Positions 14,271-62,510 of a stretch of DNA of 64,000 nt are shown piece by piece. The stretch is taken from assembly GCF_016026235.1 (NCBI RefSeq), contig NZ_CP065613.1; one strand, 5' to 3'. Made by a program: the position numbers and the translations under genes. Under the pieces are notes generated by a model. The model had not been told where the DNA came from and did not search any database. It worked only from the letters and a program-made list of their open reading frames with translations. The number at the start of each line of letters is the position of its first letter. Position 1 is the stretch's first letter. This DNA is from Escherichia coli. GTDB taxonomy: Bacteria; Pseudomonadota; Gammaproteobacteria; Enterobacterales; Enterobacteriaceae.

Positions 14271-17200
14271 TTACACCTTTTCCACATTCACAAGGAAGGA
14301 CTTAAACTCCGGCGTCTGCGTGTTCGCATCACCAACGAATGGCGTTAACGTATTGGCAATAAAGCCTTTTTTAGCTACGCCTTCATAACCCCAGTGAATC
14401 GGAATACCGATGGTATCGATATCTTTGCCGTTCGCTTTCAGCGTGCGAATACGTTTGGTCACCACCGCTTTGGCCTTGATATAGCCACGGTTGGAGGAGA
14501 CTTTCACGGTATCGCCCTGGGCAATGCCAAGTTTATTCGCCAGCGACTCCCCGATTTCCACAAACTGCTCTGGCTGCAAAATCGCGTTCAACAGCGCGTG
14601 TTTGGTCCAGTAGTGGAAGTGCTCGGTCAGACGATAGGTGGTTCCGACATACGGGAACTTATCGGCTTTACCCAATGCTTCGGCGTCGTCTTTAAAGATA
14701 CGTGCAGCCGGGTTCGAGATAACGTTTGGATGCAGCGGGTTAGTTCCCAGCGGCGTTTCAAACGGCTCGTAGTGTTCCGGGAACGGACCTTCCGCCATCT
14801 TATCGAGGGCAAACAGACGCCCCATGCCTTCCTGCTGCATGATAAACGGCCCGACGCCGCTGCCCGGAGGCGCTGCGCTGTAGTCCGGAATATCCCAGCC
14901 GGTCCACTTAGTGCCGTCCCATTTCAGCAACTGACGCTTCGGATCCCACGGGTTACCCTGCGGATCTGCGGAGGCGCGGTTATACAGAATGCGGCGGTTA
15001 AGCGGCCATGCCCATGCCCAGCCCAGCGTGTTACCGAGGCCAGACGGATCGGCGTTATCACGACGCGCCATCTGGTTGCCTTCCGGCGTCCAGCTACCGG
15101 CGAAAATCCAGCAACCACAGGAAGTTGTACCGTCATCGCGCAGTTGGGCGAACGAGCTAAGTTGTTGGCCTTTCTTGACGATAACCGCACCGGTTGCCGG
15201 ATCGGTAATATCGGCCAGCGCCTTACCGTTACTCTCCATCGCCACTTCTTCTGAAGATGGCTCATGCGGAATGGCGTAGTTCCAGGTCATGTTCAGCACC
15301 TGGTCCGGGTTCGCGCCACCCTGTTCGGCATACATCTTGCGCAAGCGCAGGAAGATACCGGAGAGGATCTCGCCGTCAGTCAGCGCAATCCCCGGGGCGT
15401 CCGCACCTTTCCAGTGCCACTGTAACCAGCGACCTGAGTTAACGATAGAACCGTTCTCTTCCGCGAAGCAGGTCGATGGCAGACGGAACACTTCGGTCTG
15501 GATCTTCGACGAGTCAACTTCGTTCAGCTCACCGTGGTTCTGCCAGAAGTTAGAGGTTTCAGTGTTCAGCGGGTCGATGGTGACGAGGAACTTCAGTTTC
15601 GACAGACAACCGATCACTTTGTTTTTGTTCGGGAATGAGGCAACAGGGTTAAAGCCCTGGCAGATATAGCCATTGACCTTGCCCTCTTTCATCATCTCGA
15701 AGTATTGCAGGACGTCGTAGCCTTTATCCCACTTCGGCAACCAGTCAAAGCCCCAGCTATTTTCCGCCGTCGCTTTATCACCAAAGAAGGCCTTCATCAT
15801 AGAGACGAAGAATTTCGGGTAGTTGCCCCAGTAGTTTACCTGGCCTTCCAGCAGCGGTTTTGGCGTGTTGGCGGTAAGGTAGGTTTGCAGATCGGTCTGC
15901 TTCTCGCTTGGCAGCGTCATGTAACCTGGCAGGCTCTGCGACAGCAGCCCCAGGTCCGTCAGCCCCTGAATATTGGAGTGACCGCGCAGGGCGTTAACGC
16001 CGCCGCCAGCCATCCCCATGTTACCGAGCAGCAGCTGGATCATCGCCATCGTACGAATGTTTTGCGCACCAACGGAGTGTTGCGTCCAGCCGAGGGCATA
16101 CAGGAACGAGGCAGTTTTATCGTGAGCACTGGTTTCTGCGATGTATTCGCAGACTTTCAGGAACGCGTCTTTTGGCGTACCACAGATGTTTTCAACCACA
16201 TCTGGCGTGTAGCGGGAAACGTGCTGTTTCAGCAAGTTCCACACGCAGCGCGGATGTTGCAGCGTGGTATCGCGTTTGGCGAAGCCGTTTTCGTCCAGTT
16301 CATAAGTCCAGGAGGATTTATCGTACTTGCGTTTTTCCGCGTCGTAGCCGGTGAACAGGCCATCTTCAAAGCCGTAATCCTCACGCACGATCAGGCTGGC
16401 GTTGGTATAGGCTTCGGTGTATTCGCGGTTGAATTTTTCATTGTTCAGCAGGTACAGCAATACGCCTGACAGGAAAGCAATGTCAGTACCGGAACGAATA
16501 GGGGCATAGTAGTCAGCCACCGCCGCCGTACGCGTAAAGCGAGGATCGATCACAATCAGCTTCGCGCCATTGTGAATTTTGGCTTCCATCGCCCAGCGGA
16601 ACCCGACCGGGTGAGCTTCAGCGGCGTTACCGCCCATCACCACGACGAGGTTGGCGTTCTTGATGTCGACCCAGTGGTTGGTCATCGCACCGCGACCAAA
16701 TGTTGGAGCAAGACTTGCTACCGTTGGTCCGTGTCAGACACGCGCCTGGTTGTCGACCGCGAGCATACCCAGCGCGCGGGAGAATTTTTGCGTTAAATAG
16801 CCGGTTTCGTTACTCGACGCGGAAGCACACAGCATCCCGGTGGAGAGCCAGCGGTTAACAGTCACGCCTTCGGCGTTTTGCGCAATGTAGTTAGCATCGC
16901 GGTCTTCTTTCATCAGTTTGGCGATGCGATCAAACGCCTCTTCCCAACTGATTTGCTGCCATTTATCAGAACCTGGCGCACGGTATTCCGGAAACTTCAG
17001 ACGGCTTTCGGAGTGGATGAAATCCACCAGGCCAGCGCCTTTCGGACAAAGTGCACCGCGGTTGACCGGGTGATCCGGATCGCCTTCGATATGGAAGATA
17101 GATGCTTTGGCGTTTTTTGCTCCGTCACCGAGGCTGTACATCAACAGCCCACAGCCTACGGAACAATAGGTGCAGGTATTACGGGTTTCGCGGGTGCGCA

Positions 17201-24798: not shown

Positions 24799-26193
24799 AT
24801 GAAAAAATCGACATTATCTTTAGCCATCGGTTTATTATTGGCATGTAGTACCGGTATGGCAAAAACACAGCATTTAACGCTGGAACAACGCATGGCATTG
24901 CTGGAAGAACGCCTGGAAGCGGCAGAAATGCGGGCGGCAAAAGCAGAGAGCCAGGTTAAACAGCTGCAGACACAACAAGCCGCTGAGATCCGCGAAATTA
25001 AGGCCGCTCAGGGCAATACGCCGGTAAATGGACAGGCAACGGCGGAATCTGCAAAGAAAAATGCCACCTCACCTAATCTTTTGCTTTCAGGTTATGGCGA
25101 TTTAAAAATCTACGGCGACGTAGAATTTAATATGGATGCGGAAAGTAATCATGGCCTGCTGGCAATGACCAACGCTGATGTGAATAGTGATCCCACTAAT
25201 GAACAGTGGAATCTCAATGGTCGTATTCTGTTAGGTTTTGACGGTATGCGAAAGATGGACAACGGTTATTTCGCCGGGTTCTCCGCACAACCGCTGGGTG
25301 ATATGCACGGTTCAGTAAATATCGATGATGCGGTATTCTTCTTTGGCAAAGAAAACGACTGGAAGGTCAAAGTAGGCCGTTTTGAAGCCTACGATATGTT
25401 CCCGCTGAATCAGGATACCTTTGTTGAACATTCCGGTAATACTGCGAACGATCTTTATGACGATGGCAGCGGTTATATCTATATGATGAAAGAGGGCCGC
25501 GGGCGCTCTAACGCTGGCGGTAATTTCCTCGTCAGCAAACAACTTGATAACTGGTATTTTGAATTAAACACGTTACTTGAAGACGGAACATCTTTATATA
25601 ATGACGGTAATTATCATGGACGCGATATGGAGCAGCAGAAAAATGTTGCTTATCTGCGTCCGGTAATTGCCTGGTCGCCGACGGAAGAATTCACCGTTTC
25701 CGCAGCGATGGAAGCGAACGTGGTAAATAATGCTTATGGTTATACCGATAGCAAGGGTAATTTTGTCGATCAGTCCGATCGTACCGGCTATGGTATGAGC
25801 ATGACCTGGAACGGCCTGAAAACGGATCCGGACAATGGCATTGTGGTTAATCTTAATACCGCCTATTTAGATGCTAATAATGAGAAAGATTTCACTGCCG
25901 GGATTAACGCGCTGTGGAAACGTTTCGAGCTCGGTTATATCTACGCGCACAATAAGATTGATGAATTCAGCGGTGTAGTTTGTGATAACGACTGCTGGAT
26001 TGATGATGAAGGGACGTACACCATTCACACCATTCATGCGTCTTATCAGTTCGCTAATGTGATGGATATGGAGAACTTTAATATTTACCTCGGGACGTAT
26101 TACTCCATTCTGGATAGCGACGGTGATAAAAAACACGGTGATGATACTGATGACCGTTACGGCGCACGCGTTCGCTTTAAATACTTCTTCTGA
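24799..26193 (+). CDS. putative outer-membrane glycoporin (signal peptide, N-terminal coiled coil, beta-barrel ending in Phe)
   Basis: 464-aa ORF; signal MKKSTLSLAIGLLLACSTGMA; heptad-like LEQRMALLEERLEAAEMRAAKAESQVKQLQ; alternating amphipathic strands; C-terminal RFKYFF; no K-12 gene recalled between frvA and rhaM. Confidence 0.6.
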   Translation: MKKSTLSLAIGLLLACSTGMAKTQHLTLEQRMALLEERLEAAEMRAAKAESQVKQLQTQQAAEIREIKAAQGNTPVNGQATAESAKKNATSPNLLLSGYGDLKIYGDVEFNMDAESNHGLLAMTNADVNSDPTNEQWNLNGRILLGFDGMRKMDNGYFAGFSAQPLGDMHGSVNIDDAVFFFGKENDWKVKVGRFEAYDMFPLNQDTFVEHSGNTANDLYDDGSGYIYMMKEGRGRSNAGGNFLVSKQLDNWYFELNTLLEDGTSLYNDGNYHGRDMEQQKNVAYLRPVIAWSPTEEFTVSAAMEANVVNNAYGYTDSKGNFVDQSDRTGYGMSMTWNGLKTDPDNGIVVNLNTAYLDANNEKDFTAGINALWKRFELGYIYAHNKIDEFSGVVCDNDCWIDDEGTYTIHTIHASYQFANVMDMENFNIYLGTYYSILDSDGDKKHGDDTDDRYGARVRFKYFF

Positions 26194-26233: not shown

Positions 26234-26548
26234 TTAAGGCAGGTAAAACACTTCTTGCAGCTCGCTACTCACCGGGCTGTTATCCGAGTTAGCGGGCATA
26301 ACATCGGTCATATATTTCCACCAACGTTGGCAAACATCAGTACTGGCAACCGCATTCCAGCGTTCTTCAGATTCAATCTCTACCATGGCAAACAGCAGAT
26401 TACGCGCTTTGTCGAGATAGATGGCGTAGTTATGCGCACCGTGAGATTTCAGCACTGCTTCCAGTTCCGGCCAGATGGGATTATGCCGACGCTGATACTC
26501 TTCGTGGGCGTCGGGGTTTACCTGCATGACAAAGGCTTTGCGGATCAT
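26234..26548 (-). CDS. rhaM: L-rhamnose mutarotase
   Basis: 104-aa [25 protein letters not shown]... Confidence 0.9.
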
Positions 26549-26557
26549 GTTTGCTCC

Positions 26558-27382
26558 TTACAGCGCCAGCGCACTGGCGAGTGGTGTAACGCCGAAACGC
26601 TGGCCGAGCGCTATCAACTCTTCACGGCTGATAGTCTGTTTCATGCCGCCCATCGAATAAACCTTCACTAATACTTGTGCTGATTTTTCTGCGGTGTCGA
26701 TTAAACCGAAGGTTTCATCCAGCGTCGGTCCGGAACCGAACACACCGTGGAAGGGCCACAACACCAGCGAATGTTTTTGCATCTCTTGGGCAGTTGCCTG
26801 GCCGATTTCGTCCGTGCCGGGTACCATCCACGGCAGAATGCCAACGCCATCCGGGAATACCACCAGACACTCGGTGCTGCCTTCCCACAGTTGGCGAGTA
26901 AAGACCGCGGTGTCGTTTTCCAGCACATAGGTGAGGGCGATCAGGTTGGTGGCATGGCAGTGCATGATCACCCGATCTTTACCGTTGGTGGCTTTAATGC
27001 GCTCGCAGTGGGAGAGAAAGTGCGCCGGAAGTTCAGAAGTTGGAACGGCCTCGTTGGTTAACCCCCAGAGAATATGGTAGCCCGCGCCGTCGCTGTCGAC
27101 TTTTACGACGCCTAAGTTAGCCGCAGGATCAAGTTGGACGTTACGGAAGAATTTGCCCGAGCCGGTGACGATAAACGGTGTATTTGCCAGTAAAGGCATG
27201 GGCTGGCTGAGCGGGATATAGCGCGGTTGTGGGTGGAAGTTGTCGTGATAAAGCGCGATATCGGCGTCATCCAGGCGCAGCGTCAGGTTGCCGCCGTTGC
27301 GCTCGTCCCAGCCTTTCAGCCAGGCGTCGGTGGTGGCTTTGATCATTCCCTGGACAAACCAGGACTGGGTAATGTTTTGCAT
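26558..27382 (-). CDS. rhaD: rhamnulose-1-phosphate aldolase
   Basis: ORF track extends to 27553 through REP sequence; start placed at MQNITQSW (ATG 27382) for ~274 aa. Confidence 0.9.
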
Positions 27383-27423
27383 GTTCTGTGTTCCTGTAAA
27401 TTCGGTGTTGTCAGATGCACGAC

Positions 27424-27644
27424 CCGTAGGCCGGATAAGGCGCTCGCGCCGCATCCGGCAATCAATGCCTGATGCGACGCTGTCGCGTCTTATCAGGCCT
27501 ACAACTATTGCCGACCTGTAGGCCGGATAAGGCACTTGTGCCGCATCCGGCAATCAATGCCTGATGCGACGCTGTCGCGTCTTATCAGGCCTACAACTGT
27601 TGCCGACCTGTAGGCCGGATAAGGCGCTCGCGCCGCATCCGGCA
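27424..27644. repeat. BIME cluster (tandem REP pairs) between rhaD and rhaA
   Basis: About 100-bp unit (gtaggccggataaggcgctcgcgccgcatccggca atcaatgcctgatgcgacgctgtcgcgtcttatcaggcctac) repeated twice plus a partial third copy. Confidence 0.85.
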
Positions 27645-27648
27645 GTGT

Positions 27649-30661
<3,013 letters not shown>

Positions 30662-36424: not shown

Positions 36425-36525
36425 CCTCGGAGTGTAGGCCTGATAAGACGCTATCAGCGTCGCATCAGGCATCCTGCTCAAATGCCGGATGCGGCGTAAA
36501 CGCCTTATCCTGCCTACAAATGCGG
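36425..36525. repeat. REP/BIME elements
   Basis: taggcctgataagacgctatcagcgtcgcatcaggc ... gccggatgcggcgtaaacgccttatcctgcctac. Confidence 0.8.
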
Positions 36526-41493: not shown

Positions 41494-41600
41494 AAATGCC
41501 TGATGCGCTTCGCTTATCAGGCCTACGTGAATTCTGCAATTTATTGAATTTACAAACTTTTGTAGGCCGGATAAGGCGTTCGCGCCTCATCCGGCATCGA
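41494..41600. repeat. REP/BIME elements
   Basis: gcctgatgcgcttcgcttatcaggcctac ... taggccggataaggcgttcgcgcctcatccggc. Confidence 0.8.
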
Positions 41601-44541: not shown

Positions 44542-45141
44542 TCATTTATTCAAACCTTCAAGCGATTCAGATAGCGCCAGCTTAATCGGTTCAACAGCGA
44601 AGGTCAGCCCCTTTTCGCCGTTGTCCGCGACAACATAACGCAGTGCACCTTCTGTCTCGGTGTAATAACGTTTGTTTTTCCCCGCCGTTAGCAGCGACTG
44701 CAGTTTTTTCTGGCTTTGTGTTTTGGTCATTAATGGGGTGAGTGTGCGGATCACTGCTGCCATGTATTCCTGAGCTTTCGCTTTCGCTGCTTTTTGCTCT
44801 GGCCCCTGGATGGGTAGCCAGGTCATTTGAATGCTTTTGATTTTTAAGGTACCGCGCTCCAGCGCTGTAGAAGCATACAAGTTCTCGTTAATTTTACTTG
44901 CAGCACGAGTGAGATTGGCTTTGTCGGGACTGCTGTCGATGGCACGAAATTCGTTCAGTGGCAGGCTAGGATTCTGGCTGTTAAAGTCTTCTCGAAACTG
45001 GCTGATGGAGAGATCGAAAGTAGGGGCTCCAGCCAGCAGATAAGGCGCGGTCGTTGCCGTATCTGGTGTTTGTGCATGCGCCGTTGTTGTAACGGTTAAT
45101 GCAGAACATAAGAGAAAAAACAGCGTACACCCTGGCTTCAT
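44542..45141 (-). CDS. yiiQ: secreted protein of unknown function
   Basis: 199-aa ORF with signal peptide. Confidence 0.8.
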   Translation of the reverse strand: MKPGCTLFFLLCSALTVTTTAHAQTPDTATTAPYLLAGAPTFDLSISQFREDFNSQNPSLPLNEFRAIDSSPDKANLTRAASKINENLYASTALERGTLKIKSIQMTWLPIQGPEQKAAKAKAQEYMAAVIRTLTPLMTKTQSQKKLQSLLTAGKNKRYYTETEGALRYVVADNGEKGLTFAVEPIKLALSESLEGLNK

Positions 45142-45241
45142 TGACAGTACCTTTTGTTATGACTGGCTCCGATTAAAACGATATCTGTCGCCCTTGTCAA
45201 AAGGGTAGAATCCTGGAAAAGACAACCATCAAGGAACTTAC

Positions 45242-45682
45242 ATGACCATACAGCAATGGTTATTCTCATTTAAAGGGCGTATTGGACGCCGTGATTTCTG
45301 GATTTGGATAGGCCTGTGGTTAGCAGGCATGCTGGTGCTTTTCTCACTGGCGGGTAAAAATTTACTCGATATTCAGACCGCGGCGTTTTGCCTGGTGTGC
45401 TTGCTTTGGCCAACAGCGGCAGTAACCGTTAAGCGCTTGCATGATCGCGGGCGTTCCGGCGCATGGGCATTTTTGATGATTGTGGCGTGGATGCTGCTGG
45501 CGGGTAACTGGGCGATTTTACCGGGTGTCTGGCAATGGGCGGTGGGGCGTTTTGTCCCGACGTTGATTTTGGTGATGATGCTTATCGATCTTGGTGCGTT
45601 TGTTGGCACACAAGGCGAAAATAAATATGGTAAAGATACCCAGGATGTGAAGTATAAAGCCGACAATAAATCAAGTAATTAA
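45242..45682 (+). CDS. yiiR: inner membrane protein of unknown function
   Basis: 146-aa ORF with several TM helices. Confidence 0.8.
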   Translation: MTIQQWLFSFKGRIGRRDFWIWIGLWLAGMLVLFSLAGKNLLDIQTAAFCLVCLLWPTAAVTVKRLHDRGRSGAWAFLMIVAWMLLAGNWAILPGVWQWAVGRFVPTLILVMMLIDLGAFVGTQGENKYGKDTQDVKYKADNKSSN

Positions 45683-45893
45683 CCTTTAATATATCTCTTA
45701 CTGCTATTTTTTTCCGGGATTGTTATTTCCACGATGCAAATGACAATACCCGGAAAATCCTTCTGAACTCTTCACCTTAAGCAATATCAAAAAAAATGGT
45801 AATCCATAAGATCATTACTTGTTTGTTCTTCCCTTAACGGCGCATTATTCTTAAGTCGTAATCGACAGAGAGGCGAATATACAGAGGTGCCCT

Positions 45894-46193
45894 ATGAAAG
45901 ATGTCGTAGATAAATGCAGTACTAAAGGATGTGCGATTGATATCGGTACGGTGATTGATAACGACAACTGTACCAGTAAGTTTTCGCGCTTTTTTGCCAC
46001 CCGCGAAGAAGCAGAGTCTTTTATGACCAAACTGAAAGAGCTTGCCGCCGCTGCATCCTCTGCAGATGAAGGGGCCAGCGTGGCCTATAAGATTAAGGAT
46101 CTGGAGGGGCAAGTTGAGCTTGATGCGGCCTTCACTTTCTCATGCCAGGCCGAGATGATTATTTTTGAGTTATCACTGCGTTCGTTAGCTTGA
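45894..46193 (+). CDS. yiiS: small protein of unknown function
   Basis: 99-aa ORF upstream of uspD. Confidence 0.75.
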
Positions 46194-56216: not shown

Positions 56217-56747
56217 TTACGCTTTGTAGCTTAATTCTTCGATGGTGTGGAAATGGTTGGTATAGATGCAAATGTCGCCTGCAATATCCAACGCCTTTTC
56301 AGCAATTTCACGGGCGCTAAGTTCAGTGTTTTCTAACAGCGCGCGCGCCGCAGCCTGGGCGTAAGGGCCGCCGGAGCCGATAGCAATAAGATCGTTTTCT
56401 GGCTGCACCACGTCACCGTTACCGGTGATGATAAGCGATGCAGTTTCATCCGCGACTGCCAGCAGTGCTTCAAGTTTGCGCAGCATGCGATCGGTACGCC
56501 AGTCTTTTGCCAGCTCAACGGCGGCTTTAACCAGATGGCCCTGATGCATTTCCAGTTTACGTTCAAACAGTTCGAACAGCGTAAAAGCATCCGCAGTACC
56601 GCCCGCAAAGCCCGCGATGACTTTGTCGTTGTACAGACGGCGGACCTTTTTCACGTTGCCTTTCATTACGGTATTGCCCAACGTGGCCTGACCATCACCA
56701 GCGATGACCACATGGCCGTTACGGCGTACGCTTACTATAGTTGTCAC
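56217..56747 (-). CDS. hslV: ATP-dependent protease subunit HslV
   Basis: 176-aa [14 protein letters not shown]; Thr at position 2. Confidence 0.95.
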
Positions 56748-56814
56748 GAGCTGACCCCTTGGTTACGAATACAGAGTACAAACCCCGTACAAAAGTACGG
56801 GGCATAATGCAATT

Positions 56815-59071: not shown

Positions 59072-61429
<2,358 letters not shown>

Positions 61430-61433
61430 TTAG

Positions 61434-61685
<252 letters not shown>

Positions 61686-62409: not shown

Positions 62410-62510
62410 ATGCCGGATGCGGCGTGAACGCCTTATCCGGCCTACAAGTTCGTGCAAATTCAATAAATTGCAATATGACGTAGGCCTGATAAGCGTAGCG
62501 CATCAGGCGA
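62410..62510. repeat. REP/BIME elements
   Basis: gccggatgcggcgtgaacgccttatccggcctac ... taggcctgataagcgtagcgcatcaggc. Confidence 0.8.

Follow-up and report, generated by a model that had tools for sequence, protein, structure and literature searches.

The stretch of DNA analysed here (the window) comprises 64,000 nucleotides of Escherichia coli sequence and includes the rhaBAD operon, whose genes lie on the minus strand. Gene boundaries were taken from the RefSeq annotation of NZ_CP065615.1 (E. coli FDAARGOS_943), which is 100% identical to the window over positions 27000-28050; the segment 28000-29000 is 99.9% identical to the same strain. With the rhaA stop codon at 27649 and the rhaD ATG at 27382, the rhaA-rhaD spacer spans 27383-27648 (266 bp), and most of it is occupied by a tandem array of REP palindromes of two types, termed Y and Z2. 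From rhaB towards rhaD, the features are as follows:

28905-30374, minus strand: rhaB (ORF list)
27649-28908, minus strand: rhaA (L-rhamnose isomerase) coding sequence, stop codon TAA at 27651-27649 (RefSeq annotation and ORF list)
27645-27648, minus strand: 4-nt gap between the rhaA stop codon and the first REP, ACAC on the mRNA
27610-27644, minus strand: REP Y-a, a 35-nt imperfect palindrome, mRNA UGCCGGAUGCGGCGCGAGCGCCUUAUCCGGCCUAC, -21.3 kcal/mol
27595-27609, no strand assigned: tail-to-tail linker, 15 nt, AACTGTTGCCGACCT on the plus strand
27558-27594, minus strand: REP Z2-a, 37 nt, mRNA GUAGGCCUGAUAAGACGCGACAGCGUCGCAUCAGGCA, -21.9 kcal/mol
27553-27557, no strand assigned: head-to-head linker ATCAA, 5 nt
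27518-27552, minus strand: REP Y-b, in which the apical stem GGCA..UGCC replaces GGCG..CGCC
27503-27517, no strand assigned: tail-to-tail linker, 15 nt, AACTATTGCCGACCT on the plus strand
27466-27502, minus strand: REP Z2-b, same sequence as Z2-a
27461-27465, no strand assigned: head-to-head linker ATCAA, 5 nt
27426-27460, minus strand: REP Y-c, of all the REPs the closest to rhaD
27383-27425, minus strand: unique rhaD leader outside the repeats, 43 nt, with a Shine-Dalgarno sequence AGGAA at 27395-27391, 8 nt 5' of the ATG
27383-27553, minus strand: artefactual 57-codon 5' extension of the rhaD ORF, with a TTG start within REP Y-b
26558-27382, minus strand: rhaD (rhamnulose-1-phosphate aldolase) coding sequence, 274 aa, start codon ATG at 27382-27380 (RefSeq and PDB)

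Anatomy of the array

The repeat forms a single tandem array, which Tandem Repeats Finder places at 27420-27644 with a period of 92, 2.4 copies, 93% matches and a score of 415, and which an ungapped repeat search divides into two full 92-bp copies (27420-27511 and 27512-27603, 95% identical to each other) and a partial third copy starting at 27604. Chance cannot account for 92-bp copies that agree at 95% of their positions. An earlier reading of this DNA, made from its letters alone (termed here the sequence-only reading), had proposed two and a half copies of a unit of about 100 bp at 27424-27644. Both the location and the copy number are borne out, and the periodicity on which that proposal depended is clear; the period as measured, however, is 92 bp rather than about 100.

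Each 92-bp unit contains two imperfect palindromes, and the array as a whole contains five predicted hairpins in the order Y-Z2-Y-Z2-Y. Folded singly, the REP hairpins, which are 35-37 nt in length, have predicted energies of about -20 to -22 kcal/mol apiece on either strand; when the entire spacer is folded as mRNA the energy is -142 kcal/mol, corresponding to z = -8.45 relative to dinucleotide shuffles. A GTAG/CTAC tetranucleotide occurs at the foot of the stem in every REP within the window, as well as in all of the 18 E. coli loci described below, and an internal unpaired position (i.e., a stem mismatch) is present in all of the predicted hairpins. Paired cells make up 96.8% of the REP stems, as against 42% or less in slid controls. 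Covariation within the Y hairpin is weak and falls short of significance: there is one covarying pair, 81 of 500 shuffles reach an equally high score, and the copies are not independent of one another; an apical stem pair alternates between A-U and G-C among the Y REPs.

One consequence for annotation concerns the rhaD start. A mechanical ORF finder reports a 331-aa ORF with a TTG start at 26558-27553 on the minus strand, which, if real, would endow RhaD with a repeat-encoded N-terminal extension of 57 residues. This frame is indeed open from 27553 into rhaD. Nevertheless, the RhaD chains in the PDB, i.e., the crystallised protein of 274 aa, align solely to residues 58-331 of the ORF; RefSeq starts the gene at 27382; the Shine-Dalgarno sequence lies 8 nt ahead of that ATG; and, depending on the strain, the open frame upstream of rhaD has 57, 24-31 or 0 usable codons. 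The extension is rejected, based on the strain-variable frame and on the PDB alignment, and has next to no chance of being real--just as the sequence-only reading, which called the ORF up to 27553 an artefact, had maintained. ORF callers should not lengthen rhaD into the repeat.

Class of the repeat and its size variation in E. coli

The architecture of the array is Y(Z2-Y)2, with a 92-bp unit, and its position is intercistronic between rhaA and rhaD. REPs are defined as imperfect palindromes having a GTAG/CTAC foot and a stem mismatch (Ton-Hoang et al. 2012, PMC3333891); BIME-2 elements are defined as tandem z2 and y REPs separated by short linkers and varying in copy number by strain (PMC3333891). 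Within the array, Y and Z2 REPs alternate in inverse orientation and in tandem, with a short head-to-head linker, as is characteristic of BIME-2. The repeat is, moreover, both extragenic and dispersed: per genome, the median number of matching places is 4 for the 92-nt unit and 9 for a 1051-bp query across the array, and the palindromes match Y and Z2 REPs at other sites in the genome. The K-12 element between rhaA and rhaD (401 bp) has been classed as BIME-2 (Sutormin et al. 2019, Table DS3, PMC6379681), and EcoCyc annotates REP299a-i inside the rhaBAD operon, at most 15 nt from the upstream gene (bioRxiv 10.1101/2024.07.17.603846). The array is almost certainly a BIME-2 and an allele of REP299.

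With REP299a-i of K-12 it shares the orthologous locus, the Y and Z2 REPs, the 92-bp unit, the linkers and the placement of the first REP 4 nt past the rhaA stop codon; it differs in having five REPs within a 266-bp spacer, as opposed to nine within 450 bp (i.e., two units fewer), and in a few point differences. A second relative, REP325 (between yjdM and yjdN of K-12), is likewise a tandem Y and Z2 array between genes of one operon, and its REP cores are nearly identical to those found here. However, REP325 has 12 REPs, a 100-bp unit and the opposite orientation relative to transcription; its linkers of 11 and 19 nt, in place of the 5 and 15 nt of the rha array, account for the period of 100 rather than 92 bp. 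The parsed architecture, the REP325 cores and the K-12 listing together confirm what the sequence-only reading had recognised at this site, namely a BIME of paired REP palindromes within the rhaA-rhaD spacer.

This kinship bears on the interpretation of two matches to the Rfam model RF02564 (naRNA4) on the plus strand of the spacer, at 27429-27499 and 27521-27591, which score 77 and 76.6 bits relative to a gathering score of 59.5. naRNA4 is an RNA product of REP325, for which a nucleoid role was proposed by Qian 2015, and such matches could be taken to mean that the array encodes naRNA4-like nucleoid-associated small RNAs, which would condense the chromosome together with HU. Yet the above-threshold matches lie on the strand opposite to that of the operon, and a search of the rhaA-rhaD spacer revealed no promoter; on the mRNA strand the scores are 56.5 and 53.2 bits, both under 59.5; and a 2026 preprint failed to reproduce the nucleoid role of REP325/naRNA4. 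The model is named for the REP325 transcript and hence recognises any Y-Z2 pair, and the antisense strand scores higher because the rha array is inverted, relative to transcription, with respect to REP325. That naRNA4-like RNAs are encoded here is exceedingly unlikely: the matches reflect the repeat family, the candidate gene is rejected, and naRNA4 annotations within this spacer ought not to be taken for small-RNA genes.

Elsewhere in the window a further Y-Z2 REP pair, at 36437-36514 on the minus strand, scores 78.6 bits against the naRNA4 model, showing that the model detects BIME-2 units generally. The other Rfam matches at gathering level lie at 16681-16739 (minus), 56745-56802 (minus), 61414-61466 (plus), 41519-41560 (minus) and 62446-62487 (plus); these five comprise SECIS_3, the ClpQY promoter element, the L31 ribosomal-protein leader and two ES036 (CssrF) matches, all of which are expected in this region of E. 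coli.

In order to compare spacers among strains, a flank-only query (rhaD/rhaA) was searched against 5,426 complete E. coli genomes. Of these, 5,362 match, and sampling evenly down the ranking yielded 59 usable spacer lengths; in the remaining 64 neither the rhaD/rhaA flanks nor rhaA-rhaB find a match, and their rha locus has probably been deleted. Eighteen E. coli loci were parsed for REP architecture. They fit the formula Y(Z2Y)n, where n is 0, 1, 2, 3, 4 or 7, except for one (L007), which was parsed as YZZY because the search pattern missed one divergent Y. In all 18 the first Y REP lies 4 nt past the rhaA stop codon. A long-leader haplotype, in which the rhaD leader is 10 bp longer, gives rise to a parallel series of spacers of 184, 276 and 460 bp. 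The architectures correspond to the following spacer lengths:

n = 0, 1 REP: 82 bp (short leader)
n = 1, 3 REPs: 174 bp (short leader), 176 bp (L004, with a chimeric REP) or 184 bp (long leader)
n = 2, 5 REPs (the window): 266 bp (short leader) or 276 bp (long leader)
n = 3, 7 REPs: 358 bp (short leader)
n = 4, 9 REPs (K-12 MG1655): 450 bp (short leader), i.e., 266 + 2 x 92, or 460 bp (long leader)
n = 7, 15 REPs: 726 bp (short leader; one locus, fetched separately)

Among the 59 sampled genomes the spacer lengths are distributed as follows:

82 bp: 14 of 59
174-184 bp: 8 of 59
241 bp: 10 of 59
266/276 bp (the class of the window): 9 of 59
358 bp: 2 of 59
450/460 bp: 15 of 59
542 bp (11 REPs): 1 of 59

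Comparison with K-12 and other strains thus reveals from 1 to 15 REPs, in keeping with the strain-variable copy number that the sequence-only reading had anticipated. Its description of the array as expanded, on the other hand, does not hold, given that the K-12 spacer is two units longer (450 versus 266 bp) and that the window falls in the middle of the range of the 59 genomes. No spacer shorter than 82 bp was found among these 59, and the spacer of the O55:H7 strain DEC5A is 542 bp long. Flanks having the same alignment score enclose 82, 266, 358 or 450 bp, while among O157:H7 strains the spacer is either 174 or 82 bp, which implies fast turnover. The two REP types differ in their uniformity: the Z2 REP is nearly invariant (43 of 44 copies are identical), whereas the Y REP occurs in 14 variants, among them one with a switch from G-C to A-T in the apical stem.

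The length of the array changes by whole Z2+Y units, probably when the 92-bp direct repeats undergo unequal recombination or slippage. The REP-associated transposase TnpA-REP, which recombines BIMEs in vitro (PMC3333891), may possibly assist in such resizing.

Several other kinds of variation were observed at or near the locus. The chimeric REP of L004:1584-1759 (E. coli RUT3575) is 38 nt long and combines a Y outer stem with a Z2 inner stem, which suggests recombination or gene conversion between adjacent REP types. In the 241-bp class, a GC-rich palindromic dispersed element of about 160 nt replaces the Z2-Y units (L009:1584-1824 and L010:1584-1824; strains AHS8C65RI and 13TMH22). This element has a median of 3 matching places per genome and is absent from the window, and an Rfam scan gave no identification for it; in about 14.5% of the genomes (787 of 5,426), a query spanning it in the rhaA-rhaD spacer is matched to 80% or more. 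The flanks of the array in the window (27083-27419 and 27645-27980) represent a rare haplotype, which is found at 99% identity or more in 1 of the 5,426 genomes (the next best is 97.8%), whereas in 3,911 genomes window positions 45000-46000 reach 99% or more. Between frvA and rhaM, the window and many strains have a 464-aa ORF (24799-26193, plus strand) annotated as 'carbohydrate porin'; it is a presence/absence polymorphism, the ORF being missing in L004, L009, L010, L013 and L014, where frvA adjoins rhaM.

The rhaA-rhaD junction outside E. coli

Outgroup loci were obtained by scanning the genomes of GTDB species for the RhaD motif GWDERNGGN, written as a degenerate pattern, and by locating RhaA and RhaD with tblastn; the matches listed include no Salmonella and no other Escherichia species. 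Among the matches listed, the gap between rhaA and rhaD is 4-17 nt in Enterobacterales of greater distance from E. coli (Yersinia, Serratia, Pectobacterium, Brenneria, Erwinia, Budvicia, Acerihabitans, Mangrovibacter and Cricetibacter), and 35-466 nt in ten Enterobacteriaceae species whose RhaD is at least 89% identical to that of E. coli. In eight of these ten the junction contains palindromic repeats, which are of differing kinds (loci within L026-L139; e.g., L036:3256-3721, L046, L060, L079, L110 and L125):

Citrobacter sp. FP75 and Enterobacter sp. Bisph1: a single Y-like REP
E. cloacae and Pseudocitrobacter faecalis: CCCTCTCCC...GGGAGAGGG hairpins
Kluyvera, strain RIT691: a Y-like REP together with a CCCTCTCCC...GGGAGAGGG hairpin
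a metagenome-assembled genome: two REPs and a long AT-rich linker
Superficieibacter electus: an eight-unit array of about 51-nt units, one REP each

Two Enterobacter loci (L051 and L139) are free of repeats and have leaders (35 and 43 nt) similar to the unique rhaD leader of E. coli.

The presence of palindromic repeats in eight of ten species marks the junction as a recurrent landing site for such elements. This recurrent occupation is compatible with selection for a hairpin at this place as well as with a simply permissive gap. A further reading would regard the junction as a convergently occupied 'expression dial', at which repeat families have settled independently and at which the count of Z2-Y units (from 0 to 7 within E. 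coli) sets the ratio of RhaB and RhaA to RhaD under lineage-specific selection rather than drift; this we consider decidedly improbable.

Proposed roles of the array

Upon transcription of rhaBAD, the five stable hairpins would block 3'-to-5' exonucleases and thereby protect the upstream rhaBA mRNA. The same hairpins might partly attenuate transcription into rhaD, and the hairpin located 4 nt past the rhaA stop codon may hinder terminating ribosomes. The intercistronic REPs of malE-malF, reportedly described by Newbury et al. in 1987, are said to be the classic example of a REP mRNA stabiliser. That system resembles the rha array in placing hairpins between the genes of an operon, where they would shield upstream mRNA from 3' exonucleases and so bring about differential expression; it differs in its locus and in having fewer REPs. 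A closer parallel in architecture is REP325 in yjdMN, which has been shown by experiment to lend stability to the mRNA upstream of it and to attenuate, in part Rho-dependently, the gene that follows (bioRxiv 10.64898/2026.03.23.713779). REPs at most 15 nt from a stop codon are described as stalling ribosomes (Liang 2015, as cited in PMC12306157). By analogy, a role as mRNA stabiliser or partial terminator at the rhaA-rhaD junction is plausible.

Other observations speak against such a role, and above all against a strong or precise one. No intrinsic terminator (i.e., a GC-rich hairpin followed by a U run) was found in 26400-28000 on either strand. The spacer is almost wholly structured and would leave little unstructured RNA for Rho loading. 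Attenuating rhaD relative to rhaB could, by our own reckoning, let sugar phosphate accumulate, with no obvious benefit. Moreover, because the number of REPs ranges from 1 to 15 within one species, there can be no tight constraint on how many hairpins the array forms; the published context-dependence of REP effects and the weak covariation of the hairpin point the same way. Whether a stabiliser or attenuator role at the RNA level would be the main effect of the array is, in our judgment, evenly balanced.

The same variability in REP number invites the view that what lies here is a selfish REP/REPIN cluster, neutral in essence, within a permissive gap, its size drifting through slippage or RAYT activity, without any selected role in rhaBAD. 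Spacers of anywhere between 82 and 726 bp in a single species, different sizes on flanks of identical alignment score, the replacement of Z2-Y units by another dispersed element in about 14.5% of genomes, two related Enterobacter loci lacking any repeat and the heterogeneity of REP effects--which, genome-wide, have been published as context-dependent rather than uniform--all agree with this. Less easily accommodated are the retention of the Y REP 4 nt past the rhaA stop codon in 18 of 18 parsed loci, the lower limit of 82 bp among the sampled genomes and the occurrence of unrelated palindromes at this junction in 8 of the 10 Enterobacteriaceae species sampled. On balance we regard essential neutrality as rather unlikely.

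Alternatively, the main role may be at the level of DNA, the array providing the divergent rhaSR/rhaBAD region with a strong gyrase site or a topological buffer, with any effects on RNA being incidental. BIME-2 elements generally have been published as transcription-independent gyrase sites, their Y REPs being cut preferentially, and the K-12 orthologue is itself cleaved by gyrase in vivo: over four conditions the rhaA-rhaD BIME-2 has 4, 2, 1 and 0 cleavage sites (PMC6379681), namely 4 with ciprofloxacin, 2 with rifampicin plus ciprofloxacin--that is, also under rifampicin--and 1 with microcin B17 (PMC6379681, Table DS3). By extension from the K-12 orthologue and from other BIME-2 elements, the DNA of the array in the window would be a transcription-independent site of gyrase binding and cleavage. 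However, 4 ciprofloxacin sites are few relative to the 35 of the tldD-yhdP BIME-2; many BIME-2 elements have no cleavage sites; and strains having a single REP are common. That the principal role lies at the DNA level is unlikely.

Of the two proteins that the sequence-only reading had named as ligands, gyrase alone is retained, based on published Topo-Seq data for the K-12 orthologue; IHF is not, the array being of the BIME-2 type. IHF sites are found in the long L linker of BIME-1 elements, which consist of a single-copy Z1+Y pair (PMC3333891). Like BIME-1 elements (RIP/RIB elements), the rha array has paired REPs in inverse orientation, including a Y REP; unlike them, it has Z2 rather than Z1, and neither a Z1 REP nor a long L linker was found in the spacer, nor is it single-copy. 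The exact IHF consensus WATCAANNNNTTR is absent from the rhaA-rhaD spacer, and its one-mismatch matches, of which two fall within the spacer (at 27460 and 27552), are about as frequent as chance would predict (64 found in the window versus 56 +/- 8 expected); an IHF site is rejected accordingly.

Taken as a whole, the locus is probably best explained as a BIME-2 allele of REP299 that would act as an RNA stabiliser or attenuator and, in addition, as a gyrase site. Such an element is already known: it is a catalogued BIME-2 (REP299) and an ordinary one, and variation in BIME-2 copy number from strain to strain is textbook knowledge, carrying little weight as a discovery. What is mildly new is the population spectrum of spacer sizes and the repeated occupation of the same junction in related genera. 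The locus could be used as a natural allelic series--from 1 to 15 hairpins within an inducible operon--with which the number of REPs might be related to mRNA stability, to read-through and to gyrase binding.
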